DNA of 58,423 bases, filler included, from Dugesia japonica (Eukaryota): assembly GCA_001938525.1 (NCBI GenBank). It is 3 parts of 3 records of this genome, joined end to end, with 100 filler letters (N's around TTAATTAATTAA, not from the genome) between each part and the next. Parts side by side here need not be neighbours in the genome. Positions count along the whole stretch, not along the records: positions 41,713 to 58,423 come from MQRL01605638.1; 2 more parts are not named here. One strand, 5' to 3'. Numbering within the stretch: position 1 is the first letter of the stretch; the number at the start of each line of letters is the position of its first letter. A model generated the notes under the pieces. It did not search any database. It had not been told where the DNA came from and saw only the letters and a program-made list of their open reading frames with translations. The position numbers and the translations under genes were made by a program. This document shows positions 13,111-58,300 of this stretch, one piece after another.

Positions 13111-13199
13111 TTATTTATTTAATTCATTCTGATGAGTTAATGTGATTGAAGAATTAAAAATTAGTTCCCAGATGGTGGTAGTACCTCGAATAAATTTAT

Positions 13200-27700: not shown

Positions 27701-30573
27701 TTGTAATATGGATGGAGTTTTAAATATTTTTAAGAAATTCAAGTTTGAAATAATTTTTTTTAATTTGAAATGTTAATTTATTAAATAACATTTGTTTAAA
27801 TCATGTAAATATTTCGTTAAAATAGGTTTTGTTATTATTTACACATTTTCTGAAGTATTTTATAGATTTTTTTTGCAANGTTTTCCAATCGCAACTTTAA
27901 TTAAATATTTTAGATGTAATTTNATAAAAATGAGCTTTGAATCCTGATTCGCTAATGTGGGAACCGATAAAAAGAAAGTGATAGTTTGTGCTTAATAGAA
28001 TTTTGAAGGTTATCTTCACTATAAAGCTATTTCGAATATTTGTGTTATCAACTTCGATTTTTACTGTCAAAACGTGGGTCGAGTTTACTACAGGCATAAA
28101 GAGAAGTATTCAGAATTGGTTCGCGGCAAATGGGATCTGCTACATTAGGATAATACCAAACGTAACAAAGTACAAGATGTGGAACAGATTCGAAGAATTT
28201 GATGTGGTCAAAGTTCTTCTATATACGTCGACAGCGTATATGTTGCGCCACCTGGCTATGATCTCTTACAATGATTCAAGTTTTCTAATGAGATTATTGA
28301 TTCTAGTCATTTCAGAAAATGGAAGAAGCATGTTAAAGATTCTTTGAATCGAAGCTGATTGAATGTAATTAAATTAGAATCATATGTTTGTAGATCAGTG
28401 GCAGAAAATTGATTAACTAGGTTTAAGAATAGTGGTTATTGCTTTTATAGCCATGAAAAGATTTGTTTGAAAAATGTAATTTTACATAAAATGGTAATAA
28501 ATTAATTAAATTAACCCTGAAATCTCGGAATATTTTCAAATATCAATGCTTTAAATTCATCTAATTTTGATCCAATTAAAGTGCTGTCATTGCCACTTAA
28601 ATGTTGAAATAAATCGAAAATTTTCTAAAATATTTTACAATTAAAAATATGACGTAATCATCAAAATAAAAATTTTAAAAAACCGTTTCTTTTAATACAT
28701 ATCCATTGATGTTAGTTTTATTGCAATATTCTGTCCATTGTCTTAAAGAGATTGAGGATTTTTTGGTAAAAAGACTTAGTATTGTAACTCCGCTCAATTT
28801 AAGAGTTACTAAATTCTAAAAATAATCCAATTTTAATTCAATGAAATATTGTGTAGTTCAATTACATTTAGTCGGGAAAACGATTCTGGCAAAGTAGACA
28901 ATTTTGTATGTTCAATGGATAAATATTTCAATAAATGTAAATTTCCTATTTTATCTGGTAATGCCGTTATCAATGTATTGTTTAATTCAAGGCTATTGAG
29001 CTGCTTAAATGAACATATTATTTCAGGAAGTTCTTTAATTGGATTGCCATCAAAGCAAAGTTGTCTAAGAATTTTAATCAAATAATTACACTTTTTTTAA
29101 TAATAAATATTTCTTAAATTATTAAAATTCTCATTTATTAGCAAAAAGTATTTTAATTATAAAAATAATTGATAATATATAACAAAATTATAAAACCATA
29201 ATAACTTGAACAAAATTAAAAATAAATTTTAAAAATATCTGCTTAGTAAGAAATACCTATGTATAAAATTAAACTAAACATAATTAAATTAAAGTAAATG
29301 TAAACAAAAAACAAGTAGATTCTGCTTTCTAAAAAAAACAGATGATCTTGATGTCTTAATATTATAATTTTTTAACTTTTGATATGTATTTTAAGTCAAT
29401 GTTGATATTGGATTGGTATTTGTTAAGCCCTTTAGATTTATTTATAAACTATTTACGTGTAATATCTGTGTATCAATAGATAAACCAAATGAAAAATATA
29501 CGATGTGTAAAAATAGCCTTAAAATAGTTTATATTATTACTAGGCTTTCTTTGGACTTNNNNNNNNNNNNNNNNNNNNNNNNNNNNNNNNNNNNNNNNNN
29601 NNNNNNNNNNNNNNNNNNNNNNNNNNNNNNNNNNNNNNNNNNNNNNNNNNNNNNNNNNNNNNNNNNNNNNNNNNNNNNNNNNNNNNNNNNNNNNCTGGAC
29701 AATATTCCCCAGAAAATTATTAAATTATATTATTCTTTTCAATTGAAAATTATTTTAAATTATTATTTATATTAAAACCGAAAAAAAATTTTATAAGCAA
29801 ATTTTAATAAGCAAAATGACTCTAGGACAATTTCTCCCCGGACAAAATAATTAAAATTTTGTAGGAAGTAAAATATTTTAAATTAAAATAAAGCTTTCAA
29901 AAATCTTTTTGTTGTCTAGGGGGTTATTGTCCTAGAGTCATTTTGCTTATTAAAATTTGCTATTAAATTTTTTTTTTCGGTTTTAATATCATAAATAATT
30001 ATTTTAAATAATTTGCAATTGAAAATAATAATATAATTAAATAATTTTCCGGGGATATTGTCCTAGAACCTCTAAAAAGACAGAAACGTGATCTCTTTCA
30101 AAATTAAATAAAGTTGTGGAACGTTGAATTATTAAAACAATTATTTAATTATTTAATATCAAATTACAAGTCGATTATTAATATATATTATTAAATTATA
30201 AAATAATACAACCATTCAAAATTTTACTTCAAGCTTTCTTTTAAATGAATAATTTCTGGACCGATTTCTTCCAGTTCACAATTTGACAGAGTAAGAGAAG
30301 ATAATGTTGGCAAATTAACAATCCATGATATATTCATCATAGTTCCAAAATCAACTTCAAGTTTCCTTAGTTTTTTGCAAGTTACTAATGCGGTTTCTGC
30401 CACATTATCCATTTCACTTCGTTTGATTACGATATTTGCAATGCATCGACAATATGCACCTAGATTAGTTCTTCCCATAACATTTGATGCCGACCTATGG
30501 CTTTCACATCCGATAAATTTTTGTTCAAGCATGTCTTGGATTTTTAAAATGTCATCATCAGTCCAGGGTAACT
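24800..30573 (-). CDS. ROCO-family LRR-Roc GTPase gene, multi-exon, 3' part (COR etc.) missing beyond the assembly join
   Basis: LRR exons at ~30228-30573, ~28860-29065 and ~25510-25687. P-loop exon KTPPFEIRKQG..CYRTKLMLVGLGGAGKT (~25300-25468). Exon with G3 WDFAGQ..YYNTHQFFLT and G4 IVGTHSDK (~24934-25249). G5-like ISSLTGK at ~24800-24820. Short GT-AG introns. Confidence 0.88.
27900..28450 (+). mobile_element. Old mariner transposase remnant in a ROCO intron
   Basis: An interrupted frame reads CA**NFEGYLHY..INFDFYCQ..KEKYSELV..LLH*DN..VAPPGYDLL, resembling the mariner catalytic domain. Confidence 0.7.
29339..29558. repeat. Dispersed repeat, near-identical to 37430-37650 (non-autonomous hAT fragment)
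   Basis: Shared CAGATGATCTTGATGTC...TTTGGACTT; ORFs 29413 and 37505 translate almost identically. Confidence 0.85.
29695..30070. mobile_element. Foldback/MITE with ~150-bp inverted arms
   Basis: GGACAATATTCCCCAGAAAATTAT...AAGCAAAATGACTCTAGGACAAT is mirrored by ATTGTCCTAGAGTCATTTTGCTT...ATAATTTTCCGGGGATATTGTCC. Confidence 0.8.
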
Positions 30574-32560: not shown

Positions 32561-33590
32561 TTAGATTGTCCCAAAAATTCCGTTGCAGCTGCGAAAATTT
32601 CAATTTAATGTATTATTATACTTTGTTTCAAATGTAATTATGTTTGAATGCTTTATTCACATCAACCTTAATCGCTAATTAATCGAAAACTAATCGTTGT
32701 AAGGATAACAACTATAATATAATATAGACGATGGAGAATTGCAACTTCTTTAGAATCCAAACCATCGTGAAGCTCTCGTGATTTAAAATCTAAACTTGGG
32801 CCTGCCTAATCAACGATTAATCAGCATTTTCAGCAACCTGATTATTCCCACAAGAAGCAGCGTTAGTATCCACACGACCTCATTGAAACAAAAGCAGTCA
32901 AAATAGTAGAAGTATGTAGTCAACTGCTCAGACAACCTACTCAGGGAACGGGATGTGATCTCGAATGAGACGCAGGTCTTTCCAGCTAATCAATCGAAAT
33001 AAGTTCCTCTTTCCATAAAGTCAAAATTGATTTGGCAAAAAAATAATAATTTGTGTAAGATGGAACTTTGAAGGCGTTTTGCACTTCAAACTAGTTCCGA
33101 ATAGTCGTGTTATCAATGTTGAACTCTGTTGTCAGCAACTTGGTCATGTTTACAACAAGTTATTTGAGAAGTATCAGGCTCTAATCCATTAGACAAGCGC
33201 CTTGTTTTACCATGACAACGCAAAGCCATAAACTGCTAAGAAGATTAAGGAGAAATTTGAAAGATTAGACAGTGTCGAGGTTTAACAACATCCCCCATTC
33301 AGCCTGGATGTTGCACGATCTGACTACTGGCTTTTCAGATTTATACAGCACTTCCTGAATGGTTGACGAATATAATCATTTGATAAAGTCAAAGAGGCGT
33401 GACAACAGTTCTTTCAATCGAAGAACTCAAATTGGTATTTTGAACTGATTCGGAAACTTGTAGACCAATGGCAGAAAGTGGTGCATAATGATGGACTGGA
33501 CTTTGAATATTTGTTAATGTTTTTAAATTCAATGAAATATTCTTTTTGTATTTTTTACGCATCTGTAACAGAATTTTTAGGATAATCTAA
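32561..33590 (+). mobile_element. Mariner transposon, internally deleted and decayed, with both TIRs and TA target duplication
   Basis: Left TIR TTAGATTGTCCCAAAAATTCCGTTGCAGCTGCG vs right revcomp TTAGATTATCCTAAAAATTCTGTTACAGATGCG; TA on both sides. HDNAKP and HPPFSLDVARSDYWLF motifs. Confidence 0.92.
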
Positions 33591-35783: not shown

Positions 35784-36129
35784 CTATAAGATACAAAGAT
35801 ATAAATTATAAAAATTAATTTTACATATTGCAATTATATATGAATTTAATGGAAATGAAAATTGTTTTTTAATTAATTTAAAAATAAATGTTAGTTTTTC
35901 TATTTTCAATAAAATTTTAAGGATCCATAAAATACTAGGCAATTAATTATTAAAAAAAATTCTGCAAAAGAATGGGAAGAGAGAAATTATACACGTGTTA
36001 AAATATTATTTAAAACTTTTAAAATTATCTAATTAAAAGTCGTATAAAATGTGTCTTAAAAGTAGTGAGACTTAGGTGAAATGATACATATCATAAATTT
36101 TTTAGCATAATTAAATAATGCATATAAAG

Positions 36130-37264
36130 TATTTGAAAGATGTTTTATGGATTTATGTGCACTATTTCAGACTACAATAACTGAAAAGAAATACATTTTT
36201 GGTATAATTGATCAATTTAATAAATATACTATTTCAAAGGTTATGACATCACAAGATGATAAAACCATTACGAAATTACTTTTAAATGAATGGATTTTAA
36301 AATTTGGGACCCCGAAAACAATTCATGTAGATAGAGGAAAAGCTTTCGAATCAAATTTATTACNTAATTTGTCAGAAAGACTTCATTTCAATATTATTTA
36401 TTGAAGTCCCTATCATCGCCAAGCCAATGAACAAAAAGAAATACAATTTCGTACAAAAGGAGATTGACTGTCTGTAATTTAAAAGATCAATCACATAAAA
36501 ATTAGGAAGATGCGCTCCAACGTATAGAATTTGCTTTGAATGAGACAACACAGAAAAGTATAAGATTTAGCCCAGCAGAACTTGTTTTTGTCAAAAAAGA
36601 CAAACAAAGAAATATTTATCCATAAAACTTAATCTTGCGAACGTCCATTGATACATATTAAATTGTTGAATGATGTTCGGTGCGAACGAAAGGAAAGTTA
36701 TTAATAATGCTAATATGATTAACTATAACAATAGTGATAAAAGAATCAATATACATTTCAAAATTGGTGGTAGTGTCCATGTAAAACTAGACATAAGAGA
36801 TAAACAGGATATATGAAGGGCCTTATAAAATTATACATGAAATACACAACAATATCCTTAAATTGAGGAATTCTAAGGGTAAAGAGATAGTTCGAAATAG
36901 AGAATGAATAAAGCCATTTAAAACTAGGTGGTGTGAAATGATTACACAATCATCTCTAATTGCCAGTATAAATAAATTATGTATGATTACATGTGTGTAT
37001 GATAAGGGATGCTGTTTTATTTGTTTGAGTCCGACAAAATTATTTCTTAGATTTTTTCCCAGACTGCTGGCTTCTAGGACAATCTACTCTAAATTACATG
37101 TTCCCAAACTTATTTGGTTTAATGTCTCTTTTTTGGGGATGGTGCTGATGTGCTTTTAGTAACTTTTATATATCCGGATACATTTTTGTCAGCATCATTC
37201 TCAAATCTCCATGTTCAACTATTTGCAAGCGATTTTTTTTGTAGATAAAAGACTTGTGACCACA
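36130..37264 (+). mobile_element. Gypsy integrase remnant with probable PPT and 3' LTR
   Basis: MDLC..IIDQFNKY..EWILKFGTPKTIHVDRGKAFES..SPYHRQAN; GPY motif near 36820. LTR-like tract ~36932-37264 ends in CACA. Confidence 0.82.
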
Positions 37265-39042: not shown

Positions 39043-39610
39043 TTATTCCAATATTACCAAGTTAGACATGAAAATTTCAATATAAATTATGGAATGAAAC
39101 TTACTCCATAAACTTCCCGGACAAAGTCTGTGTAATGCGTGATTCTGATTGTGACTAATCACATTTCGTTGGGGCATTAATAATTGAATTGGAGTCAATG
39201 GATGAGGTAGTGGCAGAAAAGAAGTTAATGTTCGATTAGACAATGGCTTATTGAAAAACATTAATTTCAAAATCTTTGAAGGACAAAAAACATTGGTAGT
39301 ACATTCCCGGGATTCATCCCCGAACATTGATAACGGTGCATAGGCTGGCTAAAATAAGTGTATTAATTAATAAAATAAGTTATATTAAAAAGTAATAAAC
39401 AAAAAAGTATTTCTTTGAAAACAAATATGATTCAAAAAGTTATCATTGTCAAACGTTTTTTTTTTTGAAATATTTATTTTCTTTATATTTTTATGGAAAT
39501 TTATTTTACCTTGTCAACCAGTCTGGGAAATAATCCGAATGGAACTGCTGTAAATTCAGAATACTGGCTAAATATCTTATACCAACTGTCAGCCAAAGCT
39601 TTTTGATTTT
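39043..39610 (-). CDS. Two probable exons (~39610-39511; ~39349-39058) of unknown assignment
   Basis: Splice-bounded open segments ..QKALADSWYKIFSQYSEFTAVPFGLFPRLVDK and PAYAPLSMFGDESRECTTNVFCPSK..; no family recognised. Confidence 0.5.
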
Positions 39611-40799
39611 CTAAAAATTACGAAGTAATATTCATTAATGTCACAACAGATTCAAAGAGCAGGAATAAATTCTACATAAATATTCCAATTAAATAACTAT
39701 TCTATATTAAATAATCATTAATGAAAACTAAAACATAACTTTTAATCAAATTATTTTTATTATAACTGTGTTGAAATAACACTGGGTTGAATTATTTTCA
39801 TGAGTAATAAATAATGTTTACATAAGAGACTCTCCGTTAATTATGTCAACAATTTTCATAAACAAAAATTTTTATAAACAAATGTCAAACTTTCAGTGAT
39901 CCTCCTTCTAAAAAAATATATAAACAAATGTTTACCTCTACCCAAAAAATTAACAATATTTCAACTAACTTTATTGATTTATTATATTTAGCGTAAAACA
40001 TGGTTGACATCAATTTATCTTGGACACCCTTCTCCATTGTTAACAATTGTTAAACTTCTTTAAATCTCCTTACTCTGATTTTGTTGGCATAATTAATGGG
40101 CAACCCCTAAGTAAGAATTACTCAAAATTTTAAATGATTAAATAGTAATTCTATAAGTGAGNTATACCTAACTCAGATTCTAATGAACCTTCTTTTATCA
40201 GGATTTACAAATATAAATATAAATACGGATTTATACATCGAAGTTATATACGCAAATTTGATTTTAATCAAATATTTATTTAAACCAAAATAACAATCAA
40301 TAAAAAACCATAAATACTATTATTTAACATTTACAATTACGAAAATTTTAAAACTTATAACGAGGATAAAGTTGAAAGACTTTTAAAAATACAAACTATC
40401 GAGAATACTAACAAGAAAGCAATTTCACAAACTCCATTTAAGTCATCTTTATTAAATGTTTCAATTCAAATGCATATCAGTTTTAATAAAATCAATAAGA
40501 ATTTAAAAAATACTTTTTAAATTCGTCATTTTTTATTCTACTGATTTGCACTTATAGTATTAATATAATTTACAAAAAAAAGATCATAAAATACTTTAAG
40601 TAATTTTCACAATAAAATAAAATATAAATTAACAAAATTTGTTTACTTAAATATTTAAAGAAAAATTTANTATTGAAACANATTTTTTTAATATTTTAAT
40701 TTATAATTAATTAATATTTTACATATTTCTAGAATGTATTGTAAATGTTTGTCAGTATGTTTAGCGATACTAAACTCTCCGAGTGTTTTAACGATTTGT

Positions 40800-41505
40800 T
40801 TGAGTACTCGAATACTTGATATTCAAATATATTTGCCTATTTTTTAACTAGTTGATATTCGAATATTTTTTCCCCATATTCGAATAATTTCAATAATGTA
40901 AAGGTAAAGTAAGCTTTGAAAAAGATACTATCCATTTCTCTTCTTACAAACAAACTATTTCTTATATGTTAGAAAAAGGAAATAAAATTCTCAAATACAA
41001 AAAATAATATTTAACATTGAGTCAAGGATGGATGAGAGAAGAGATCGAGCTTTAATGACACTGATAATTTATCTACAGAGTGAAAATATAGCAAGTTCTA
41101 GCGATCATTTTAAATATTTCTCAAAAAATGCAGCAATTTAATTCGCTGTTAAAATTATGGAACAAATATATCCTCAAATGTTTATAGAATTGCATATTAA
41201 TAATGATTTTACCTCATCTTCATCCGATGCAGATGATTTAATAGAATTAACGTCACAGATTTGATTGTAAAATAAAAGTCTAAAATGCAATAATTTCTAT
41301 TACAGATCCACAAAAATATCATATTTGCAATTGCAGTCAAATTGATAAATATAACGAATTGAAGAAAGGATTTCGTCAATTAGAATGTTTCAAAAAACTG
41401 TATACAACGCCGGATGTTTTGTATCACGCTTTTTCATTAACAACTTCTGAAAGAGTATTTTCAACAGCAAGTTCAATTAAAACAAAAAGAAGAACATGTT
41501 TATTT
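40800..41505 (+). mobile_element. Internally deleted hAT element (subterminal repeats plus C-terminal dimerisation remnant)
   Basis: TTSERVFSTASSIKTKRRTCL at ~41441-41503. 40802-40868 resembles the revcomp of 3384-3451. Confidence 0.75.
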
Positions 41506-41612
41506 ATTTATTTTCGTATTTTCTAATTTATCGGTCTTTGGTTAGATTTTTTGTTTGCGTTTGATTGTGATTATTTTGATGAGACTTTTATAATATTTTA
41601 AGTTATCTACTT

Positions 41613-41712
41613 NNNNNNNNNNNNNNNNNNNNNNNNNNNNNNNNNNNNNNNNNNNNTTAATTAATTAANNNNNNNNNNNNNNNNNNNNNNNNNNNNNNNN
41701 NNNNNNNNNNNN
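41613..41712. other. Artificial 100-bp assembly spacer N44-TTAATTAATTAA-N44
   Basis: Identical to 24657-24756. Confidence 0.95.
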
Positions 41713-43505
41713 TGTTGGTATAACCATATCTACTTCTAATGTGTATTCATATGGTAACGATTCGAGATCTCCTATTCTACATTCTTTCAATACTGAATCC
41801 AATCCAGTATATACCCACTCAAAATTGGCATAAGGCAATTTCTGACTTAATACCCATCCATATAGATTGTTGATGTCGATGTATAATAAATCGGTGTTTT
41901 CGTTAGTAACAACATGATGTTTATTTACAAATGATAGCCCTCCTCTTATACCTCATTCGAAAAAGGTATACAAGTCATTATCAGTCAACAATTCAATTGG
42001 CTCATTTAATGACATCAATGCAGATGCCCAACTCATACCTGGGATGCNNNNNNNNNNTAATGGCTCCAAATTATTGTGTGCCAATGATTTATTTCTGAAT
42101 TGTTGAAAGAAATCGGCTAACAAAAACACATGTAGTTTCAAATATACTAGCATGTAATCCAATAAATTGTTGCATCCTGTTATAGTCCACATTTCCACTG
42201 CTTTTTGATAATCTTGCCCACTAACATCCTTTCATCTTGGTGGCATTGTTGTTGTTTCAATCAGAATTTCTAAACTGGTGGCATAGAAAACTGGTGGCAA
42301 GAAAATATCCCCTTTGGCATTGTTATTCTTTTGTCTTTAAATTCGTTTGTTGTCAAAGGTGTCTCTTTTAAGGATTTGACTGCTGCATCCAATGGTGAGT
42401 TTATAAATTGGTACGAGTCAATTAATCTGATTGTATTTTCTTTTAGATGTTCAATGAGACATAGGAATTTTTCTGATGTTGTTAGTATATATGATATGGT
42501 CCAATGTGGAAATTAATTTAATCCATACTTTAATATATGATGAAGGTCATATCCTCTGAAATTATGGAAGACTACTGGTAATTGATAATTAATACTGCTT
42601 AAATTGCATTTATTACAGGCCGCTCCAATATACTTGCCTGTAAAATGATCATGATCCCGAACTGGATTACATAAAGGTTTTTTGCACTGATGACATATTG
42701 TACTTTGTTTAAATTCTATTTCTTGATCGAGGTTCATAATTCGTTTGTTTTTTCCTTCTTTAATATAATTTGAATATACTATATTATTACTAATTTCCTC
42801 CACTGCCTTTAGGAATTTATGTACACATTCATTTCCAACAAACTGACTTATTTGACTTCATTGGTAAAATTATTTACCAACAACAGTCCAGCTGAAACAG
42901 GTAAATGTTTCTGGAAATGCTTGCCATCGCTTGGTAATACTGATTCAAAATCAGCATATATAACAAAGGGTAGAGTTATAGTTTTAGAGTAATCCTGAAA
43001 CTCCAGATTTTTTTCTGTTGGCATCTTGTATAATGTGGTGCCCTTCTGAATTTTCTCACAAATTTGTTCATGCGTCTTGTAAGCCGTAGTATCCTTGAAT
43101 CCGTTGAGACAATTTTCGCAACAGATTGATTGAATTCGAACACCACTCTTTTTAATATCTCGGTTTATCAATCTATTCAAATTCATTACGGCAGTGTAAT
43201 GAAATTTATTAGTATCTTCCAATAACAATGAATTGATCTTTTCTCCATCACATTTAGAATGATATATAATGTCTAAATTCGGATGCTTCATGATAACGTC
43301 ATCATCATCTTCTACTGATTGTGGATTCCATGAGAAAACATTAATTGATAAGCCTGGGTTCTGTTTTTCAAATTTAGGGATATTTGCAAGCTTCATTGGC
43401 ATGTCCCCTTTATCAAATACAAGTTTGGACGTATATTTTTGATAATTAGACACCCTAAATTTATTATTTCTAACTTTATCTTGTTTGAGAATTGCTAGAA
43501 TACTA
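41713..43505 (-). pseudogene. Adintovirus/Polinton-type protein-primed PolB, partial copy B2
   Basis: FEKQNPGLSINVF; CENCL..HEQIC zinc finger; YADFES (ExoI); endonuclease VII-like CHQC..RDHDHFTGKYIGAACNKCN; FHNFRGYD (ExoII); YLKL..LLADFFQQFR; YIDINNLYGW. Stops and frameshifts. Confidence 0.92.
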
Positions 43506-43555
43506 NNNNNNNNNNNNNNNNNNNNNNNNNNNNNNNNNNNNNNNNNNNNNNNNNN

Positions 43556-45061
43556 CCAATGCGGAAATTTATTTAATCCATACTTTAATATATGGTGAAG
43601 GTCATATCCTCTCAAATTATGGAAGACTTTTGGTAATTGATAATTGATTCTTCTGCTTAAATTGCATTGATTACAGGCTGTTCCTATATACTTGCCCGTA
43701 AAATGGTCATGATCCAGAACTGGATTACTGAAAGGTTTTTTGCACAGATGATATATTGTACTTTGTTTGAATTCCATTTCTTGATCCGACTTCATAATTC
43801 GTTTCTTTTTTCCTTCTTTAATATAATATGGATATACTATATTATTACTNNNNNNNNNNNNNNNNNNNNNGAATTCATGTACACATTCATTTCCAATAAA
43901 CTGGCTGTATTTGACTTCATTGGTAAAATTATTTAACAACAACAATCCAGCTGAAACATGTAAATGTTTCTGGAAATGCTTGTCATTGCTTGGTAATACT
44001 GATTCAATAAAACAGCTCGATTGGATAATCTAGAAGTTTTTGTTTCGTCTTCTTTTTCGAATTCGACATTTATCCCAAATTGGATTTTGACAGTTTTTAA
44101 TTCTTCAATAATTTTAAACAACTGCCCAATCAAGGAATTTAGTAAAACGATTTCTCTCGTATTCCACTTTGAAACATTCATTTTTAATATCGGGTGACAT
44201 TTATATAAGTCACTTTCTATTANCACATCTTCATTGAGAGAGCCACCAACTTGTGCTTCTTCTTCATCTATAAAACTTTGCATGACAATATCCTCTTCAT
44301 TTATTTCATTTATGATTTGAAAATTGGACTTGTTATCTTCAGTTATCTGAGATTCAACCTTCATTTTTCCATCTTCTTTTCTCTTCTTCAATAGTAGGCC
44401 ATCTATCTCTTTATCTAATATCATCTTCAATAATTGTTTTTTATTTGTTGTAAACTGACCTAAGTGGTCTGCATGGAACCTATAAAAGTCTAAATATTCA
44501 CCTATTCCTATAGACCTGCATGACGGACATATGTAATACTTTTCCTTATAATAAGATTGTGCATAGTATCTCTGCATAATACTATGGCAGCCCCTTTTAC
44601 AATTTGCACAATATTGTTTGTACATTGTACAACATTCTGGAAAAAAATAATTTTGATCCATTTTATAAAATTATTAAAACATAAAATAAATTATAAAATA
44701 AAAAACTAACTTTTATCATAAATAGGAGGAGCAACTGGAGCAAAAACAACAGAAGCATCATAATTCTAAAATAAATAATTTTAACAACTATCAACAGTTG
44801 ATAATAAATTTACTTTATTTAAACTCTTTCACTTGATACCTCTTCCACCTTGATTTGAATTATTATAATTCTAAAATAAAATTAATTATCATTAAATAAT
44901 AAAAATAAATTTACATTATCCATCATTAAACTTGTCAAATTCATACTTCATTTATCGTTTATATTATTCATAACCTGAAAACAATTAAATAATAATAATG
45001 AAAATCAATAGTTTACCGTTTCTTCGCTCAACAGTTTTCTCAATATGCTTTAATTGTTCAT
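43556..45061 (-). pseudogene. PolB copy B1: intron-split 5' end, Cys-rich and acidic N-terminal region, deletion into the exonuclease/endonuclease VII segment
   Basis: ORF 43933-44661 (YCANCKRGCHSIMQRY..CPSC..QVGG). 43556-44006 closely duplicates ~42500-42948. Four GT-AG introns lie upstream in phase. Confidence 0.85.
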
Positions 45062-45119
45062 AGTTTTAATTAAATTGTGAAAAATTCTAAAAATAAACTA
45101 CTTTTATAATGTCAAAATA

Positions 45120-45320
45120 ATTTTTCTATTGTATGTATGTATTATACTTTTTCAATTCCTTCTGTATGTATGTATCATATTTTTTTATCCTCTTTGTACG
45201 TGTTTATCATATATTTTCTATCCCCATTTAACTATTTGTGTGTGTGTATTAAAATTTTCTATCCTCATTGTATGTGTGTATCATAATTTTTCCATCCATT
45301 TTGTAAGTGTGTATTAGAAC
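45120..45320. repeat. Short tandem repeats (TGTATGTGTGTATCATATTTTT-like, ~28-38 bp) upstream of PolB copy B1
   Basis: About 6 imperfect copies. Confidence 0.7.
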
Positions 45321-45624
45321 TTTTCAAATACCGCAACGCAGTATATTTAGTTAATTTTAAAATATTGCAGCTTAATATATTTTTAATATATATTTTAAAA
45401 TTTTTGATAAATTAATTATAAGGTATTGCAACGTAGTATATTGTTACATTTACAAAGTAATTAGTCATGAAAATAACAAAGACATGTTATAACAAAGGTC
45501 AATTAACTACTTTATATTTTTATGATTTTAACAAAGATTAATTATTATTTTATAAATAAAATAAAAATAAATTAAATATATTCATAAAATACATTTATTT
45601 ACATAAAACATATACATTTTCAAC

Positions 45625-48600
45625 TACAATGTTGAATTAGAAGTATCAAGTAGCTGATCTCTCACCATACTTGCTGTTATGTTTTCTTATTTAGTATTTT
45701 CTATTTCTAGAAAAAAACTATCTGTATCCCCGGCTACAATATTAATTATACAATTATATTCCTTCCTTTACTGGTCCAACTCAGTGTACTGAAGTTTGTA
45801 CATTCTCAATTTTGAGAGGTCAAGTACAGTTTGTCCTATGTAACTCAGACGATCTAAACAAACTATGTCCTTATTGANNNNNNNNNNNNNNNNNNNNNNN
45901 NNNNNNNNNGTTGTTTTCTTAAATCCGGCTTTTGATGTGTATGTAATCAGCTTCTTTGCTGAATTACATAAGCGGAGATTGATCCTGTTCTTGAGTTTCT
46001 CCAATGATTTTCCATATAAACTGTTATTTAATAGTTTATAATAGTTTTTATCCAATTCAGTAACACAATTTGATCCGAGAACTGTGTTAGTATTGATATA
46101 ATTCTCAAAAATTGAAGCTTATCTGAATTTCACTCGTCGATGAACCTCCGTTACTTGAACCCTTAAACTTATATACATTTGAAGCAATCTCCAGTGCACT
46201 ATGTAATTGTTCTTGGAGTAGTGCGTTAACATTTATTTCTTCAATTTACAACCTGGAGCGCTTCTATGTTCTGCTGCAACAGGTAAATCATTCAAATAAT
46301 CATGAATTTTCGCAGGAATCACCATGTTCACTTTTAGAGTGTATCCGTATGACAATGAGTCTAAGTCTGCATTCTTACACTCTTCCAAAACGTTATCTAA
46401 TCCATTTTAGATCCATTCGAAATTTGCAAAGGGCAACTTTTGACTAAGTGCCCAACCATATAGATTATTAATATCTATATACAAAAGGTCAACATTCTCA
46501 GTAGTATCAACATAGTGCTTGTTAACGAATGTTAACCCTCCTCTTATACTTCCTTTAAAAAAGGTATACATATCATTATCTTGAAGCAACTCAATCGGCT
46601 TTTCTAATGAAATTAATGCAGATGTCCATGACATTCCAGGTATTCCAAAGAAATTTAGCGGTTTCAAATTATTGTGTGCTAAAGACTTTGCGCGGAATTG
46701 CTGGAAAAAATCAGTTAATAAATACACATCCAGCTTCAAATATAACATCATATAGTCCAGCAAATTTGTACAGTTGAATATTTCCCACATCGATAATGCT
46801 TTCTCATACTCTTCTCTACTAACATCCTCTCATTTTGGTGGCATTTGCTTGGTTTCTTCCAGAACCTGCAAGCACGTTGCAAAACTGTATGGAAATATCC
46901 CCTTTGACTTGGTAATAGTCTGATTCTTAAACTGCTCAGTAGTCAAAGGTATCACTTTTAAGGATTTAACAGCAGAGTCTAATGAAGAATTTATAAACTG
47001 ATAATTGTCGATGAATTTAATTGATGTTGATTTAATTTGTCGTACAATTAAACATAGAAATTTTTCTGATGTTGTTGGGATGCATGATATTTCCCAATTA
47101 TTAAACGTCTTAATACCATATTTGAGGATATGATCTTCATCATATCCTCGTTAATTATGAAAGACCACTGGTAGTTGAATATATAATTTTCTACTTAAAT
47201 CGCATTGGTTACATGCTGCTCATCTATATTTCCATGTGAAATGGTCATGGTCACGAATGGGATCTCTTATTTCCTTCTTACATAAATAACAAACTTTTGC
47301 AGCTTTGAATTCTTTATCCTGATCTATTGTTATTATAATTTTCTTTTTTCTTTCTGTTTCATAATAAGGAAACACAGTGTTTTTGCTTATTTTCTCCACA
47401 GCCTTTAGGAAATTATACACACAGTCATCTCCAATAAACTGTCTGTATGTTGATTCGTTGGTAAAATTATTTACTAACAGTAGACCAGCCGAAAGGGGTA
47501 AATGTTTCTGGAAATGCTTCTCATCTAGAGGTAAAACCGACTCAAAATTTGCATATATAACAAAAAATGGTGTTATGGTTTTCGAATAATCCTTAAAAAT
47601 CAAGTTCTTCTCTGTTGGCATCGTATACATGGTGGTACCTGTTTGGACTTTTTCGCAAATCGGTTCATGTTTCTCATATGCGACTTCATTTTTGAATCCA
47701 TTCAAACAGTTAGGACACCATGTTGATCGAATGCAAACACTTTGTCCTTTATTATCCCTCTTCATTAGAAGATTTAGATATAGTACTGCGGTGGATTGAA
47801 ATCTGTTGTTATTTTCCAGTAATAACAGATATACTTTCTCTCCATCTATCACTTTCGAACGATGTATTATATCCAAATTTGGATGTTTCATTACTACGTC
47901 ATCTTCTTCATCATCCACTGATTCTTGATTCCATGATCGGACATTGATGGATAGTTATATTATTCTTCTCAAACTTTGGTATATCAATCAGTTTCATCGG
48001 CATATCCTTATCATCAAAAATAAGCTCCAACATGTGTTTTTTATATAATGTTACACGGTTTCTATGCTTTCTTTCAACTTGATCTTTTTTATTGATAGCA
48101 AGAATACTGTAAATAAAACAGTAATTATCATCGTCCTTGATGTAAACAATTGCTTCTTTCCTTTTAAAATCTTTCGGTGCTGCAAAATAACTTTTCCCCG
48201 AAAGTCGACATATATTTGCAACCTTGGTGATTTTGAAATTAATTCCCAGTATTCTGTTTAACATCCAACTAGAACCTAATTCGCTTCTTATTGTTATTTT
48301 CTCATTTAATTGATTAATCCTATCTTCAAAAAAGTTATCAGTTAATGCAACGGCTCTAATTGATATCCCAGAGGTTTTAAACTCAAATTCTTCTCCATTT
48401 TTTAACATTTTAACATTTTTCATTTCTTTTATTGACTCAAATACTTTGTTGACTGTTGCTTCTGGTACAATAATTTCACGACAATTCCAACTTGTGACAT
48501 CTATTTTTAAAACACGATTTAAATCTGTTTCTTTTATCACACCATCATCAGTTTTAATTATTCATCCACCGAATTGAATATTTTCTTCTGCATCCGTGAA

Positions 48601-49323
48601 ATGTTGTAATAAAATCACCTCATCCCCAATTTCGTCAAATAGTTTGGTATCATCAGCAGCATTAATTATCGATCGACTATCTTGCAAATTTTCGTCTGAA
48701 TCCATAAACTGATGTAATAAAATGTCGTCATCCCCAATTTCTTCAAAACGTTGAGCGTCATCATCAGTATTAATTATCGATCTACTATCGTGCATGTTTT
48801 CTTCTTCATCCATAAACTGATGTAAATTATTGTTCTCGTCCCCGATTTCGTCAAATAGTTTAATACGATTCCTATTCTCTTCATCTGGTTCATTATTGAT
48901 TGTTCGTTCTTTTTCTTCAGATTCTATATTGATTGTTTTTTCTTCTTTGTCATCTTCAATAATATTCTTAATTGTATTAACTTCCGGTTCATCTAACTCA
49001 CTAAGCATCTGTCTGTCTAATAATGATTTTAGTAAATTTTTTTTATTTTTAGTGAAGCTTGTTAAATAGGTTTTATATGTATTATAAAAACTTAAATAGT
49101 CTTCTAAGCCTAATACCTAACAATTAGGACAAACGAAATAATTTTTCCCATAAAACCAATGTTTCTAGTATCTTTCCATAATACTATGACAGTCACCATT
49201 GTGACTCACACTAGCGCAATGGTTTCTGTACAAGATGCAAGTATCTGTATTCCAAATCATTCTTGGATTAACGTCTTCTGCTGAATCTCTATCTCCAATT
49301 TCAAAAATATTTACCATTTTCAT
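45625..49323 (-). pseudogene. Adintovirus/Polinton-type protein-primed PolB, near-complete decayed copy A
   Basis: In order: CHSIMERY, acidic repeats, QFGG, DNYCFIYSILA, CPNCL..HEPIC, YANFES, DHDHFT, KGIFPY, YLKLDVYLL, RGG, YIDINNLYGWALSQKLP, KLLNNSLYGK, AGDTDSFF, LDTSN, then truncated. Confidence 0.93.
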
Positions 49324-49374
49324 ATATAAAATAAAACTTATACCAATTTGTTTATGTATATTGACCATTTACCA

Positions 49375-52300
49375 TTCTTTATCATATTATTTGACCCTGT
49401 TCTTTTGCTTTACACTCTCCCTTTCTTTTACCCTCTCCCTTTCTTTAACTCTCTCCCTTTCTTTGACCCTCTCCCTTTTTTTAGGCTCTCCCATTCTTTT
49501 ACCCTCTCCCTTTTATTTAACCCTCTAACTTTCTTTTACCTTTTTACTTTTCTTTTACCCTCTTCCTTTTCTTTACCCACTCATTTTCTGTAACACTCTC
49601 ACTTTCTTTTACACTCTTATTCTCTTTTACACTGTCCTTCTCTTTTACCCTCTACCTTTCTTTAACAATATTCCTTTCTTTTACCCGCTCTCTTTCTAAA
49701 ACCCTCTTCTTTTCTTAAAACCCTCTTCTTTCCTTTTACCCTCTTTTCTTTTTTTACCCTCTCCCTTTCTTTTACCCTCTCTCTTTCTTGTACCTTCTTT
49801 TATTACTTTAACCCGCACCTTTTCTTATAACCACTCCCTTTTTTTACCCTAACCCTTTCTTTTACCCTCTTCCTTTATTTTATTCTTTTCCTTTCTTTTT
49901 TCCTCTAATTTTCATTTACCTTCTTCCTTTCTTGTACCTTATTTTATTTCTTAAACCCTCTCGTTTTATTTTTACCACTCCCTTTTTTACCCTCTCACTT
50001 TCTTTTACCCTGTTGCTTTCTTTACCCTCTTCTTTTCTCTTAAACTGTTCTTTTTTTAACCTCTCCCTTTCTTGTACCTTCTTTTATTTATGTAACCCTC
50101 TCCTATTCTTTTAACCACTCTCTTTTTTTACCCTAACCCTTTCTTTTACCCTCTTCCTTTATTTTAGTCTCTTCCTTTCTTTTAACCTCTCCCATTCCTT
50201 GACTCTCTTCTTCTTTTTACGCTCAATTTTTTTTACCATCTCCTTTCTTTAACCCTTTCCCTTTGTTTTAATCTCTCTTTCTTTTACTGTCTCACTTTCT
50301 TTAACCCTCTCTTTCTCTTTATTCTTTACTTTTCTTTTACCCTCTCCTTTTTTTGTACCTTCTTTTATTTCTTTAACCCTCTCTTTTTCATTCCACCACT
50401 CCCTTTTTTTACCCTAAATCTTTCTTTTACCCTCTTCCTTTATTTTACTCTCTCCCAATCTTTAACCCTCTCCCTTTCTTTTACCCTCTTCTTATCTTTA
50501 ACACTCTTCCTTTCCTTTTCCCTATTTTTTTGTTTTACCCTCGCTTTTTCTTTTACCCAATAACTTTCTTTTACGCTCCCTTTTTCTTTATTCTTTACTT
50601 TTCTTTTACCTTCTCCCTATCTTGTACCTTCTTTTATTTCGTTAACCCTCTCCTTTTCTTTCCACCACTCCCTTTTTTCACCATCTCACTTTCTTTAACC
50701 CTGTTGCTTTCTTTACCCTCTTCTTTTCTCTTAAACTGTACTTTTCTTTTACCCTCTACCTTTGTTTTACCCTCTTCTTATCTTTTACAATCTTCTTTTC
50801 TTTTACCCTCTCTCTTTCTCTTACCTTCTACATTTCATTAACTCTCTCCTTTTCTTTCCATATATCCCTTTTTTTACCATAAATCTTTCTTTTACCCTCT
50901 TCCTTTCTTTTACCCTCTTCTTTACTTTAACCCTCTCACTTTCTTCAAAACTCTCCCTTTCTTTTACACTCTCCCTTTCTTTAAACATTCTCCAATTCTT
51001 TTACTTTCTTCTTTTCTTTTACAATCTCCCTTTCCTTAACCCTCTTCCTTTCTTTTTCCCTCTCCCATTTCTGTACCCTCTTCTTTTATTTTACCCTCTC
51101 ATTTTTTTGAATCCATCTCCTTTCTTCTATCCTCTCTCATTCTTTAACACTCTTCTTTTCTTTTAACCTCTCCCCTACTTTTAACCTCTCTCTTTCTTTT
51201 ACCCTATGCCTTTCTTTTAACATCTCCCTTTCTTTATTCTTTACTTTTCTTTTACCCTCTCCCTTTCTTGTACTTTCTTTTATTTCTTAAACTCTCTCCT
51301 TTTATTTCCACCGATCCCTTTTTTTACCCTAAATCTTTCTTTTACCCTCTTCCTTTCTTTTACTCTCTCCCAATCTTTAACCCTCTCCCTTTCTTTTACC
51401 CTCTTCTTTTCTTTAACACTCTTCCTTTCATTTTCCCTATTCTTTTGTTTTACCCTCGCTTTTTCTTTTACCCAATAACTTTCTTTTACGCTCCCTTTTT
51501 TTTTATTCTTTACTTTTCTTTTACCTTCTCCCTATCTTGTACCTTCTTTTATTTCGTTAACCCTCTCCTTTTCTTTCCACCGCTCCATTTTTTCACCATC
51601 TCACTTTCTTTTACCCTGTTGCTTTCTTTACCCTCTTCTTTTCTCTTAAACTGTACTTTTCTCTTACCTTCTACATTTCAGTAACCCTCTCCTTTTCTTT
51701 CCAACAATCCTTTTTTTACCATAATTCTTTCTTTAAACCTCTTCGTTTATTTTACCCTCTTCTTTTCTCTTACCCTCTCACTTTCTTCAACAGTCTCCCT
51801 TTCTTTTACACTCTCCTTTTCTTTGAACATTCTACAATTCTTTTACTTTCTTCTTTTCTTTTACAATCTCCCTTTCCTTAACCCTCTTCCTTTCTTTTTC
51901 CCTCTCCCATTTCTGTACCCTCTTCTTTTATTTTACCCTCTCATTTTTTTGAATCCATCTCCTTTCTTCTATCCTCTCTCATTCTTTAACACTCTTCTTT
52001 TCTTTTAACCTCTCCCCTACTTTTAACCTCTCTCTTTCTTTTACCCTATGCCTTTCTTTTAACATCTCCCTTTCTTTATTCTTTAATTTTCTTTTACCCT
52101 CTGCCTTTCTTGTACTTTTTTTTATTTCTTAAACCCTCTCCTTTTATTTCCACTGATCCCTTTTTTTATCCTAAATCTTTCTTTAACCCTCTTCCTTTAT
52201 TTTACTCTCTTCATTACTTTTACTCTCTTTTCTCCTAAACTGTACTTTTCTTTTACCTTCTACCTTTGTTTTACCATCTTTTTTCTTTAAAACTCTTCTT

Positions 52301-55300
52301 TTCTTTTACCCTCTCTCTTTCCCTTACCTTCTAATTTTCATTTATCTTCTCCTTTTCTTTTAACCTCTTCTTTTTTTAACCTCTGACGTTCTTTAAAAAT
52401 CACCCTTTCTTTTACCCTCTTACTTTCTTTAACCTCTTCTTTTCTTTTACCTTCTTTTTTTCTGTTAACCTCTCTATTCCTTGACTCTCTTCTTTTTTTT
52501 TATCCTCTATTTTTTTAACATCTCCTTTCTTTTAATCTCTCTCTTTCCTTATTCTGTCTCTTAATTTTACTGTCTCACTTTCTTTTACCTTCTTGTTTTC
52601 TTTATTCTTTACTTTTCTTTAACCCTCTCCCTTTCTTTTACACTCTTCTTTTCTTTCAACCACTCCCTTCCTTTTACCCTCTTCCTTTATTTTATTCTCT
52701 TCCTTTTTTTATCCTCTCCCTTTCTTTTACCCTCTTCTTTTCTTTAACACTCTCCCTTTCCTTTTCCCTATTCTTTTGTTTTACCCTCTCCTTTTCTTAT
52801 ACCCTATCACTTTCTTTTACCCTCTTACTTTCTTTTACCCTGTTGCTTTCTTTACTCTCTTTTCTCCTAAACTGTAATTTTCTTTTACCTTCTACCTTTG
52901 TTTTACCCTCTTCTTTTCTTTTAAACTCTTCTTTTCTTTTACCCTCTCTTTTTCTCTTACCTTCTAATTTTCAATTATTATCTCCTTTTCCTTTACCCTC
53001 TTACTTTCTTTAACCTTCTCTTTTCTTTTACCTTCTTTTTTTCTTTTAACCTCTCCAATCCTTGACTCTCTTTTTTTCTTTTACCCTCTATTTTTTTAAC
53101 ATCTCCATTCTTTTACCCTCTCCTTTTCTTTTAACCTCTCTCTTTCTTTTACTGTATCCCTTTCTTTCACCCTCTCATTCTCTTTTATTCTTTACTTTTC
53201 TTTTACCCTCTCCCTTTCTTGTACCCTCTTTAATTACTTTAACCCTCTCCTTTTCTTTCAACCACTCACTTTTTTTATCCTAACTCTTTCTTTTACCCTC
53301 TCTCTTTCTTTAACCCTCTTGCTTTCTTTACCCTTTTCTTTTCTTTTAACTTTTTCCTTTCGTTAAGCCACTCCCTTTCTTTAACACTCTCCATTTCATT
53401 TACCTCTCTCCTTTTCTTTTACCCTTTTGCTTTTTTAACCCTTTNNNNNNNNNNNNNNNNNNNNNNNNNNNNNNNNNNNNNNNNNNNNNNNNNNTCAACC
53501 ACTCACTTTTTTTATCCTAACTCTTTCTTTTACCCTCTCTCTTTCTTTAACCCTCTTGCTTTCTTTACACTTTTCTTTTCTTTAAACTTTTTCCTTTCGT
53601 TAAGCCCCTCCCTTTCTTTAACACTCTCCATTTCATTTACCTCTCTCCTTTTCTTTTACCCTTTTGCTTTTTTAACCCTTTTCTTTTCTTTAACTCTCTT
53701 CCTTTCGTTTACCCTTTTACTTTCTTTTACACTATCCATTTATTTTACCTTCTCCTTTTCTTTTAACCTCTTCTTTTCTTTTACATTCTCCCTTTCCTTT
53801 TCCTTCTTCTTTTGTTTTACCATCACCATTTCTTTTAACCTCTATTTTTTTTAACATCTCCATTCTTTAATCCTCACCTTTTCTTGAAACCTCTCTCTTT
53901 CTTTTACTGTCTCACTTTCTTTTACCATATCCTTTTCTTTTATTCTTTACTTTTCTTTTAACCTCTCCCTTCCTTGTACCTTTTTTTATTTCTTTAATCC
54001 TCTCCTTTTCTTTCGACCACTCCCTTTTTTTATCCCACCTCTTTAATTTACTCTCTTCTATTCTTTTACCCTCTTCGTTTCTTTTACCCTCTCTCTTTCT
54101 TTTAGCCTGTTGCTTGCTTTACCCTCTTCTTTTCTTTTACACTCTCCCTTTCATTTTCGCTATTCTTTTGTTTAACCCTCTCCCTTTCTTTAAACCTCTA
54201 CTTTTCTTTCAACCACTCCTTTCCTTTTACCCTCTTCCTTTATTTTATTATCTTCTTTTCTTTTACCCTCTCACTTTCTTTAAAACTCTCCCTTTCTTTT
54301 ACCCACACCCTTTCTTCTTGAACAAACTCCCTTTCTTTTACCCTCTACCTTTCTTTTACCCTCTCCCTTTCTTTTAACCTCTTCTTTCATTTTACCATCT
54401 CCCATTCTTTTATTCTTTTCTTTTCTTTTACCCTCTCCCTTTTCTGTACCATCCTTTTTTTCTCCAACCCTCTCCCTTTTTTTTACATTCTTACCTTTCT
54501 TAAACCCTCTTCCTTTCATTTACCCTCTTATTTTTTTTACACTCTCCCTTTTATTTTCCCTCTTCTTTTGTTTAACCCTCTCCCTTTCTTTTAACCTCTC
54601 CCTTTCCTTTTCCTTCTTCTTTTGTTTTACCCTCATACTTTCTTTTACACTCTACTTTTCTTTCAACCAATACCTTCCTTTAACCCTCTTCCTTCATTTT
54701 ATTCTCTTCCTTCTTTTTACTCTCTTCTTTTCTTTGACCCTCTCACTTTATTTAAAACTCTCCCTTTCTTTGACATTCTCCCTTTCTTAAACCCTCTTCC
54801 TTTCATTTACCCTCTTCTTTTCTTTAACACTCTCCCTTTCCTTTTCCAATTCTTTTGTTTAACCGTCTCCTTTTCTTATACCCAATCACTTACTTTTACC
54901 ATCTCACTTTCTTTTACCCTGTTGCATTCTTTATTCTCTTCTTTTCTCCTAAACTGTACTTTTCTTTTACCTTCTACATTTGTTTTACCCTCTTCTTTTC
55001 TTTTAAACTCTTCTTTTCTTTTACGCTCTCTCTTTCTCTTACCTTCTAATTTTCATTTACCTACTCCTTTTCTTTTAACCTCTTCTTTTTTTTACATTCT
55101 TACTTTCTTTACCCTCTTCTTTTCTTTTACCTTCTTTTTTTCTTTGAACCTCTCCATTACTTGACTCTCTTCTTTTCTTTTACCCTCTATATTTTTTAAC
55201 ATCTCCTTTCTTAATCTTTCTTTTACCCTCTTTATTTATTTGATTCTCTTCCTTTCTTTAACACTCTTCTATTCTTTTACCCTCTTCTTTTCTTTTACCC

Positions 55301-58300
55301 TCTCCCTTTCGTTTACCTTCTCCCTTTCTTTTAATCTCTTCTTAAATTTACCCTCTCCCATTCATTTTATTCTTTTCTTTTCTTTAACACTCTCCCTTTT
55401 CTGTACCATCCTTTTTTTCTCTAACCCTCTCACTTTCTTTTACATTCTCCCTTTCTTAAACCCTCTTTTTTTCATTTTCCCTCTTCTTTTGTTTAAACCT
55501 CTCCCTTTCTTTTAACCTCTCCCTTTCCTTTTCCTTCTTCTTTTGTTTGACCATCATTCTTTCTTTTACACTCTACTTTTCTTTCAACCACTACCTTCCT
55601 TTTACACTCTTCCATCATTTTATTCTCTTCCTTTCTTTAACACTCTTCTTTTCTTTTACCCTCTCCCTTTCTTTTACCCTCTCCCTTTCTTTAACCTTCT
55701 CTCTTTCTTTAAACCTCTTCTTAATTTTACCCTCACCCATTCTTTTATTCTTTTCTTTTCTTTAACCCTCTCCCTTTTCTGTACCATCCTTTTTTTATCT
55801 AACCCTCTCACATTCTTTTACATTCTCCCTTTCTTAAACCCTCTTCCTTTCATTTTCCCTCTTCTTTTGTTTAACCCTCTCCCCTTTCTTTTAACCCCTC
55901 GCTTTCCTTTTACTTCTTCTTTAGTTTGACCCTCATCCTTTCTTTTACACTCTACTTTTCTTTCAACCACTATCTTCCTTTTACACTCTTCCTTTATTTG
56001 ATTCTCTTCCTTTCTTTAACACTCTTCTTTTCTTTTACCCTCTCCCTTTCTTTTACCCTCTCCCTTTCGTTTACCTTCTCCTTTCTTTTAACCTCTTCTT
56101 AATTTTACCCTCTCCCATTCTTTTATTCTTTTCTTTTCTTAAACCCTCTCCCTTTTCTGTACCATCCTTTTTTTCTCTAACCCTCTCACTTTCTTTTACA
56201 TTCTCCCTTTCTTAAACCCNNNNNNNNNNNNNNNNNNNNNNNNNNNNNNNNNNNNNNNNNNNNNNNNNNACTTTCTTTTACATTCTCCCTTTCTTAAACC
56301 CTCTTCCTTTCATTTTCCCTCTTCTTTTGTTTAACCCTCTCCCTTTCTTTTAAACTCTACTTTTCTTTCAACCACTAACTTCCTTTTACACTCTTCCTTC
56401 ATTTTATTTTCTTCTTTTTTTTACCCTCTTCCTTTATTTTATTCTCTTCCTTTCTTTAACACTCTTCTTTTCTTTTACCCTCTCCCTTTCTTTTACCCTC
56501 TCCCTTTCTTTTACCTTCTCCCTTTCTTTTAACCTCTTATTAATTTAACCCTCTCCCATTCTTTTATTCTTTTCTTTTCTTTAACCCTCTCCCTTTTCTG
56601 TACCATCCTTTTTTCTCTAACCCTCTCACTTTCTTTTACATTCTCCCTTTCTTAAACCCTCTTCCTTTCATTTTCCCTCTTCTTTTGTTTAACCCTCTCC
56701 CCTTTCTTTTAACCTCTCCCTTTCCTTTTCCTTCTTCTTTTGTTTGACCCTCATCCTTTCTTTTACACTCTACTTTTCTTTCAACCACTATCTTTCTTTT
56801 ACACTCTTCCTTAATTTTACTCTCTTCCTTTCTTTAACACTTTTCTTTTCTTTTACCCTGTCCCTTTCTTTTACCCTCTCCTTTTCTTTTAAACTCTTCT
56901 TTTCTTTTACGCTCTCTCTTTCTCTTACCTTCTAATTTTCATTTACCTTCTCCTTTTCTTTTAACCTCTTATTTTTTTTACATCCTTACTTTCTTTACCC
57001 TCTTCTATTCTTTAACCTTCTTTTTTTCTTTGAACCACTCCATTACTTGACTCTCTTCTTTTCTTTTACACTCTATATTTTTTAACATCTCCTTTCTTAA
57101 TCTTTCTTTTACCCTCTTCATTTATTTGATTCTCTTCCTTTCTTTAACACTCTTCTTTTCTTTTACCCTCTCCCTTTCTTTTACCCTCTCCCTTTCGTTT
57201 ACCTTCTCCCTTTCTTTTATTCTTTTCTTTTCTTTAACCCTCTCCCTTTTCTGTACCATCCTTTTTTTCTCTAACCCTCTCACATTCCTTTACATTCTCC
57301 CTTTCTTAAACCCTCTTGCTTTCATTTTCCCTCTTCTTTTGTTTAACCCCCTCCATTTCTTTTAACCTCTCCCTTTCCTTTTCCTTCTTCTTTTGTTTGA
57401 CCCTCATCCTTTCTTTAACACTCTACTTTTCTGTCAACCACTATCTTCCTTTTACACTCTTCCTTTATTTTACTCTCTTCTTTTCTTTAACACTTTTCTT
57501 TTCTTTTACCCTCTATCTTTCTTTTACCCTCTCCCTTTCTTTTAACCTCTTCTTAATTTAACCCTCTCCTATTCTTTTATTCTTTTCTTTTCTTTAACCC
57601 TCTCCCTTTTCTGTACCATCCTTTTTTTCTTTAACCCTCTCACTTTTTTTACATTCTCCCTTTCTTAAACCCTCTTCCTTTAATTTACCCTCTTCTTTTC
57701 TTTTACACTCTCCCTTTCATTTTTCCTCTTCTTTTGTTTAACCCTCTCCCTTTCTTTTACCCTCTCCCTTTCTTTTTCCTTCTTCCTTTGTTTTACCCTC
57801 TCTCTTTCTTTTAACCTCTCCCTTTCTTTAAGCCTCTTGCTATCTTTACTCTTTTCTTTTCTTTCAACTTCTTAATTTCGTTAAGCCCCTCCCTCTCTTT
57901 TACACTCTCCATTTCTTTGACTCTATCCCTTTCTTTTACCCTCTTGCTTTCTTTACACTCTTCTTTTCTTTAACCCTCTTCCTTTCGTTTACCCTTTTAC
58001 TTTCTTTTTCACTCTCCATTTCTTTTACCTTCTCCCTTTCTTTAAAACTCTTCTTTTCTTTTACCCTCTCCCTTTTCTGTCCCATCCTTTTTTTCATAAA
58101 CCCTCTACGTTTATTTCACCCTCTAACTTTCTTTTAGCCTGTTGCTTGCTTTACCCTCTCCCTTTCTTTTATCCTCTCCCTTTCTTTTACTCTATCCATT
58201 CTTTAAACATCTCTCTTTCTTTTACCCTCTCCCTTTCTTTAATCCATTGTGCTTTCTTTACCCTTTTCATTTCTTTAAACTTCTTCCTTTCGTTTAGCCC

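Follow-up and report, generated by a model that had tools for sequence, protein, structure and literature searches.

Candidate spliceosomal introns in the 5' end of a decayed Polinton-type polymerase copy from Dugesia japonica

Introduction

Can the polymerase gene of a Polinton-type element carry introns of the kind used by its host and, where such introns are seen, do they belong to the element or to the locus in which one copy happens to lie? The question is raised by a 58,423-nt stretch of assembled Dugesia japonica DNA (hereafter, the window), in which two copies of a pPolB gene are arranged head to tail on the minus strand (copy A, 49317–45636; copy B, 45061–41716). A preliminary description of this DNA had proposed that the 5' end of copy B is split by four spliceosomal introns, and had offered three explanations: an intron-bearing pPolB lineage, a spliced viral leader, and the capture or domestication of host exons.

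Results

Anatomy of the 5' end of copy B

Read on the minus strand, copy B begins with an ATG at 45061 and its 5' end is interrupted by four GT-AG gaps. Predicted exon 1 (45017–45061, 45 nt), which begins with this ATG and contains one stop, is followed by predicted intron 1 (44975–45016, 42 nt, phase 0), exon 2 (44915–44974, 60 nt; one stop, with in-frame ATGs downstream of it), intron 2 (44871–44914, 44 nt, phase 0), exon 3 (44814–44870, 57 nt; one stop, common to no other copy aligned), intron 3 (44766–44813, 48 nt, phase 0), exon 4 (44711–44765, 55 nt; stop-free, with read-through leading to a stop at 44708) and intron 4 (44637–44710, 74 nt, phase 1), which contains an in-frame ATG at 44661. 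Phases of 0, 0, 0 and 1 lead into the frame of ORF 44670–43933, entered at 44636. The introns with their sizes and phases, the exon coordinates and the ATG are all as first described. The claim that the exons join an ORF at 43933–44661 stands as regards the frame join at 44636, but the ORF itself proved chimeric after ~44005, where the polymerase jumps ~270 residues forward. Upstream of this point, exon 5 (44006–44636) is an open frame with a Cys/His repeat, an acidic linker and the start of a conserved domain. The fragmented rest of copy B (41716–44005) shows the internal jump, a duplicated Endonuclease VII, N gaps and frameshifts, and lacks a 3' end.

A simple intron rule recovers all four introns, and the same type of scan gave a fifth candidate (45147–45087) 5' of the ATG at 45061. 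The GT-AG ends, T-rich 3' ends, host-like size and restoration of the frame on removal are those expected of U2-type introns. The GC content of the individual candidates is 0.07–0.17, and in total the introns have 13.0% GC as against 27.6% for the exons and 30.9% for the ORF. Chains of four candidates arose in 3 of 5000 dinucleotide shuffles when phase was not required, and in one of 328 500-nt windows of real host DNA, in a low-complexity stretch at 10822–11235. Exon peptides searched against 206 retrieved proteins gave no match (best E 2.4). Two host genes with minimal introns lie in the window, at 4938–5737 (which we take to be CCDC124-like) and at 24885–30571 (LRR/Roc-domain). The sizes of copy B's introns do match those of the CCDC124-like gene (45 and 47 nt), as had been noted, and also introns of 43, 50 and 51 nt in the Roc-domain gene; the second intron of the gene at 4938–5737 has an inner AG after 17 nt.

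The mutual similarity of the four introns is no greater than that of shuffles (123–881 of 1000), and no intron-like copies beyond AT-rich noise were found elsewhere in the window. Within the window they thus do not look like introners, which would leave many near-identical copies at unrelated sites. The signal of exon duplication is likewise weak (exons 2 and 3, 42 of 1000; exons 3 and 4, 38 of 1000; 12 tests), and tandem duplication was not retained as the origin of copy B's own exons.

CA-rich short repeats upstream of the gene (45120–45325, minus strand) are likely to mark the promoter region: CAYAC words number five in 300 nt, compared with a host mean of 0.23 and a maximum of three in 276 windows. 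The count is also five upstream of the related contig L014, and 0–1 in six other relatives. A putative TATA-like box (45101–45108, minus strand) lies 47 nt before the first ATG; the spacing is 36–42 nt in L011–L013 and 72–88 nt in L014 and L017. As a rival reading, the sequence of this box may simply be part of the candidate 5'-UTR intron 45147–45087, within which it falls.

Stops, decay and surroundings

Three in-frame stops (45052, 44950 and 44831) interrupt the mini-exons. They had been put down to general decay, a view that the counts contradict: three stops fall in 72 exon codons versus three in ~921 codons of the rest of copy B (P ~0.002), and the excess is also seen within the gap-free piece of the copy (P 0.011). 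At the exon-3 stop, the window's letter differs from 32 of 32 contigs of run X1, four of four contigs of X13 and seven of seven X24 reads. The window's own copy is seemingly absent from the runs (word share <=0.35, with many places differing in all contigs), so this private stop may also reflect strain variation or faulty assembly. A non-standard genetic code was rejected as the reason for the stops, since the standard code reads host genes without interruption. Copy B makes no polymerase; the copy is dead.

The Endonuclease VII stretch occurs twice in copy B (43556–44005 and 42501–42948, 90% alike), beside N gaps, and this duplicate and the jump at 44005 reflect either rearrangement or misassembly. 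The N gaps at 24657–24756 and 41613–41712, with their central TTAATTAATTAA spacer, are an assembly artefact. Copy A (45636–49317, minus strand) is a decayed sister with 69% DNA identity to copy B and a missing 3' end. The same scan found no intron candidate in it, which bears out the statement that it lacks equivalent introns. Three 108-nt tandem repeats (48543–48866) expand its acidic linker, in the same arm that gains exon–intron units in relatives. Just before copy A ends a 9-kb array (49409–58419) of ~500 copies of a degenerate 18-bp unit with extreme strand skew; its minus strand reads as K/E/R-rich repeats with >200 stops in each frame, and it is either a satellite or a decayed coding repeat. 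Elsewhere in the window lie an intronless two-domain phosphagen kinase gene (16186–18654), best matched by taurocyamine kinase (306 bits versus 139), and, at 1–1350, 11986–13114, 20200–22098, 32700–33500 and 36111–36950, what we take to be fragments of Gypsy integrase/gag and of hAT-type and mariner-type transposases.

Polymerase domains and element context

Matches to DNA_pol_B_2 and Endonuclease VII, together with polymerase motifs, are present in both copies; PF03175 scores above cut-off in copy A, and relatives carry PF03175 and PF02945. Where a vOTU domain would lie, a conserved Cys is found in 65 of 70 aligned rows and an HY motif in 29 of 38 full-length rows, and by this placement the Cys and His of the region would belong to a putative vOTU. 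A predicted fold model (pLDDT 79), of a fragment without the His half, found no match in three fold searches; nor did a search of solved structures with the clade profile find one, and an Atlas search of a homologue gave no usable match.

None of the 20 window ORFs scanned encodes an integrase, ATPase, protease or capsid protein, the copies being fragments and the contigs of the clade 1–4.5 kb long. No convincing inverted repeat was found in 39400–49500, and the element ends lie outside the window. Judged by sequence, copies A and B appear to work like the pPolB of Polinton/Maverick elements and may derive from a full element.

Introns in relatives

An HMMER search with the N-terminal ORF identified 45 proteins sharing the Cys/His repeat and the conserved domain that follows it; word-index protein searches with this ORF gave no match. 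The polymerase core retrieved 249 pPolBs, the best 60–76% identical, and a metagenome scan yielded 80 loci, ten of which (L011–L020) fall in the clade of copies A and B. A quick 85-row tree pairs copies A and B as sisters (support 99), joins them to P0005–P0008 (94) and places them, with L014, L015 and L017–L020, in a clade of 41 rows (99). A single assembly supplied six of the ten contigs, and the other four may stem from one campaign.

Four of these ten contigs contain 14 introns in total: three each in L014 and L017, and four each in L015 and L020. All are 42–53 nt long, with a GC content of 0.04–0.19, and all are in phase 1. Their removal would lengthen the open frame from 94 to 767 codons in L014, from 99 to 659 in L017 and from 41 to 484 in L020, in each case to the contig end, and from 40 to 1232 codons, to a natural stop, in L015. 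The first intron position is common to L014 and L017. An acceptor at the position of the L020 intron after LLQN stands at the start of L018 and L019, and this position is read through in P0026; the position of the intron after INL[ST] recurs as the protein ends of P0151 and P0160. Several database proteins start or end inside apparent introns. Two of the L020 introns lie in conserved sequence. In L015 an exon–intron unit is repeated (76% over 173 nt), and in L020 the end of the first exon is repeated.

No coding intron was found in L011–L013, and in L016 a 41-nt intron candidate ends just before the ATG. In L013, the stretch 310–965, just before an intronless pPolB, holds a tandem repeat array and a small 65-codon ORF split by one intron; upstream DNA is common to L011 and L013 (126 nt at 87%). 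Outside the clade, intron candidates were detected in eight of 70 metagenome loci, seven of the eight inside a long open frame. Viral-contig scans returned only distant pPolBs, with intron candidates in one of ten loci; one viral contig of 51% GC (L001, 45–12200) has a distant pPolB gene free of introns, along with probable capsid genes.

None of the relatives' intron positions matches the four of copy B. Those of copy B lie before the Cys/His repeat, and those of the relatives, all in phase 1, lie after it or in forms that have no repeat. In P0168 and P0178, acceptor-like letters without an ATG stand just before the first Cys, a hint, read from protein letters only, of an acceptor at this point. 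In 18 of 23 proteins the linker before the conserved domain contains a Gly-Gly-type motif (loose pattern), with instances in the linkers of P0005–P0140 and, in the window, in exon 3 and at 44250–44240; presumably it resembles adenovirus-protease cleavage sites.

Copy number and transcripts

Four sequencing runs of the host species (X1, X13, X23 and X24) were aligned to 43871–45500 (1630 nt) at 85% likeness. DNA run X1 contributed 3993 contigs covering 30 of 30 bins at a summed depth of 29,000–123,000 over exons as well as introns, and the 440 nt upstream of the gene had a similar depth. The region is therefore part of a repeated element and not a one-off host gene. Run X23 gave only eight partial reads.

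In the comparison of copies proposed as a check of the gene model, seven of seven indels listed for 44637–45061 (40 of 186 variant rows are listed) fall in introns, as expected of coding exons, although they represent ~4 independent records (P 0.057 on four) in AT-rich DNA that is indel-prone anyway; in copy B itself, the stop excess in exons 1–3 points the other way. One X1 contig (depth 31, short side 23 letters) lacks a net 42 nt in exact register with intron 1, and as a single record suggests either precise loss or an intronless relative.

A search for spliced RNA, also proposed as a check, found no joint at the four copy B sites among the 15 joints listed of 28. Unspliced reads were seen: of six X24 reads over intron 1, four have indels within the intron, and X13 pieces run through introns 1 and 2. 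Over the introns, X24 has a depth of 2–11 from the quarter of the run that was read, its source copies are ~90% alike, and exons of 45–60 nt are hard to seed in read alignment. At 44366–44585, all reads of RNA run X24 carry differences at eight places that are rare in X1 (1–13%); for this reason a minor subfamily appears to be transcribed there.

Discussion

The rarity of the chain, the GC contrast, the intron-split open frames of relatives and the high copy number together point to real introns in a repeated element, and we consider it very probable that the four introns of copy B are genuine. As to what they belong to, our main reading, to which we give a probability of roughly 60%, is that the 5' end of copy B is a decayed copy of a natively spliced, multicopy Polinton-type pPolB gene with coding mini-exons. 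Of the explanations offered at the outset, the intron-bearing element lineage is the one favoured by the multicopy region and by open-frame relatives with introns of the same kind.

In an intact member, host RNA polymerase II would start near the TATA-like box at 45108, the host spliceosome would remove the AT-rich introns of 42–74 nt, and translation would run into the polymerase from a start in exon 1 or from an ATG further on, in exon 2. The mini-exons would supply an N-terminal arm, short and variable, before the Cys/His repeat, followed by predicted terminal-protein, vOTU, exonuclease and palm domains. Across the clade, introns probably arise and multiply in this poorly conserved arm, partly through tandem copying of an exon together with its intron (evident in L015 and L020, weak in copy B), and sometimes undergo precise loss. 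Whether an animal-associated clade of Polinton-like viruses or self-synthesising elements as a whole has a natively intron-split replicase, with introns gained via tandem duplication of phase-1 units that reshape the N-terminal arm, some lost precisely and some positions kept in diverged members, we judge to be evenly balanced; such a lineage would likely need the host spliceosome.

The introns could be real and yet exons 1–3 or 1–4 might serve only as an mRNA leader for the polymerase, either non-coding or with uORFs, and translation might start from an ATG close to the last acceptor or beyond it. We regard this as unlikely, though it is the most serious of the alternatives. It would account for the stop excess in exons 1–3 (three seen, with 7.2 expected if non-coding, P 0.07), it agrees with the Met found 2–4 residues before the first Cys in 14 of the 18 proteins listed, and the intron candidate of L016 ends just before an ATG. 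In copy B, however, the first in-frame ATG to follow the acceptor at 44637 comes only beyond the first conserved Cys, 44626–44636 has no indel in other copies among the rows listed, the listed indels avoid the exons, and stops in exons 2–4 are fewest, or tied for fewest, in the annotated frame. It seems more doubtful still that exons 1–4 form a separate small gene with three introns, ending at 44708, and that the polymerase starts at ATG 44661, intron 4 being no intron. This ATG is in frame, a Met stands about as far from the Cys in copy A, and L013 offers a parallel in its one-intron ORF upstream of an intronless polymerase; yet the gap between stop and ATG would be only 44 nt, and TATAAA abuts the ATG with no box at promoter distance. 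Moreover, other copies differ in the length of the T-run ahead of the acceptor (847 of 2720 depth in X13 show a 1-nt loss at 44641), and such variation would disrupt a coding frame; intron 4 has a strong donor and acceptor and the phase 1 of all 14 introns in relatives.

Very improbable, in our estimate, are the two readings that detach the pattern from the element. Capture of host-gene exons at this locus, or a copy in the course of domestication, would fit the host-like size and composition of the introns and their absence from copy A, and nematode Mavericks do carry intron-bearing host cargo (10.1101/2022.07.12.499685). Against this, exons, introns and 440 nt of upstream sequence are all high-copy, relatives have introns of their own in element-type sequence, and the copy is broken in many places by stops, frameshifts and truncation, where a domesticated gene would be single-copy with an open frame and conserved synteny. 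Capture or domestication, as put forward in the preliminary description, is hence not what the copies suggest; an old capture of the exons by the whole subfamily would still be compatible with them. A chance pattern in AT-rich upstream DNA would be consistent with the one real host window that holds a four-candidate chain and with the want of a spliced read among the joints listed, but not readily with the shuffles, the GC contrast, the frame join, the exact-register loss of intron 1 or the intron-split relatives.

If a whole clade is natively spliced in this way, splicing would act as an on/off switch for replication, active members would depend on minimal introns of host type, and the elements would be transcribed in the nucleus and controlled there by host splicing. 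Catalogues built on ORFs would give wrong N-termini for the clade: with intactness judged from long open frames, its spliced members would pass for broken or truncated copies, and their N-terminal domains would go unnoticed. Intron positions could be used to trace descent and host transfer, and recent gain and loss of introns could be studied in the clade as a compact, testable case from an animal lineage.

Mavericks are reported to have expanded in planarians (10.64898/2025.12.11.693146). Copies A and B resemble Polintons/Mavericks in DNA_pol_B_2 with an Endonuclease VII insert, in their polymerase motifs and in high copy number, and the pPolB order given for Polinton/Maverick (Eupolintoviridae) is TP-vOTU-EXO-PALM (10.1101/2024.03.18.585575). 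They differ in that the polymerase gene itself is split, and in that integrase, capsid, ATPase, protease and terminal repeat are not seen beside the copies. Intact vertebrate elements are described as having no introns (PMC8097293), and nematode Mavericks as having intronless core genes and cargo genes with introns (10.1101/2022.07.12.499685). Intronless core genes, a described trait of intact elements and not a formal criterion, are not what we see here, with four introns in copy B and 14 in four of ten contigs. In the literature searched, no Polinton polymerase was described as natively split by introns; such introns may nevertheless be noted in Repbase or in supplements.

A gene of a pPolB system that starts in a tiny upstream exon is also found in adenovirus E2B, where the polymerase, too, probably starts in such an exon. 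For pTP the first exon is 9 nt, and the same table lists the polymerase as unspliced (PMC2397415). The E2B arrangement is a single long splice of the leader, within a compact virus; here there are several introns of host size (40–75 nt), and in L020, unlike E2B, two lie inside conserved domains. Mirusviruses have GT-AG spliceosomal introns that are read as a sign of nuclear transcription (PMC12768974), but belong to another realm, infect protists and have introns enriched in virion genes. Ginger1 transposons have a core gene with 1–4 spliceosomal introns, some at conserved positions (PMC2836005), although theirs encodes a cut-and-paste transposase and not a self-synthesising polymerase. Dinoflagellate polinton-like elements carry introners, that is, transposon-made introns mostly gained after integration (PMC12166617), and these share with the present case spliceosomal introns inside eupolintoviral elements. 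By contrast, the introns of copy B are short, AT-rich and minimal, have no repeats of their own and lie in the 5' part of the polymerase gene, and in this clade, unlike the introners, positions are common to diverged members.
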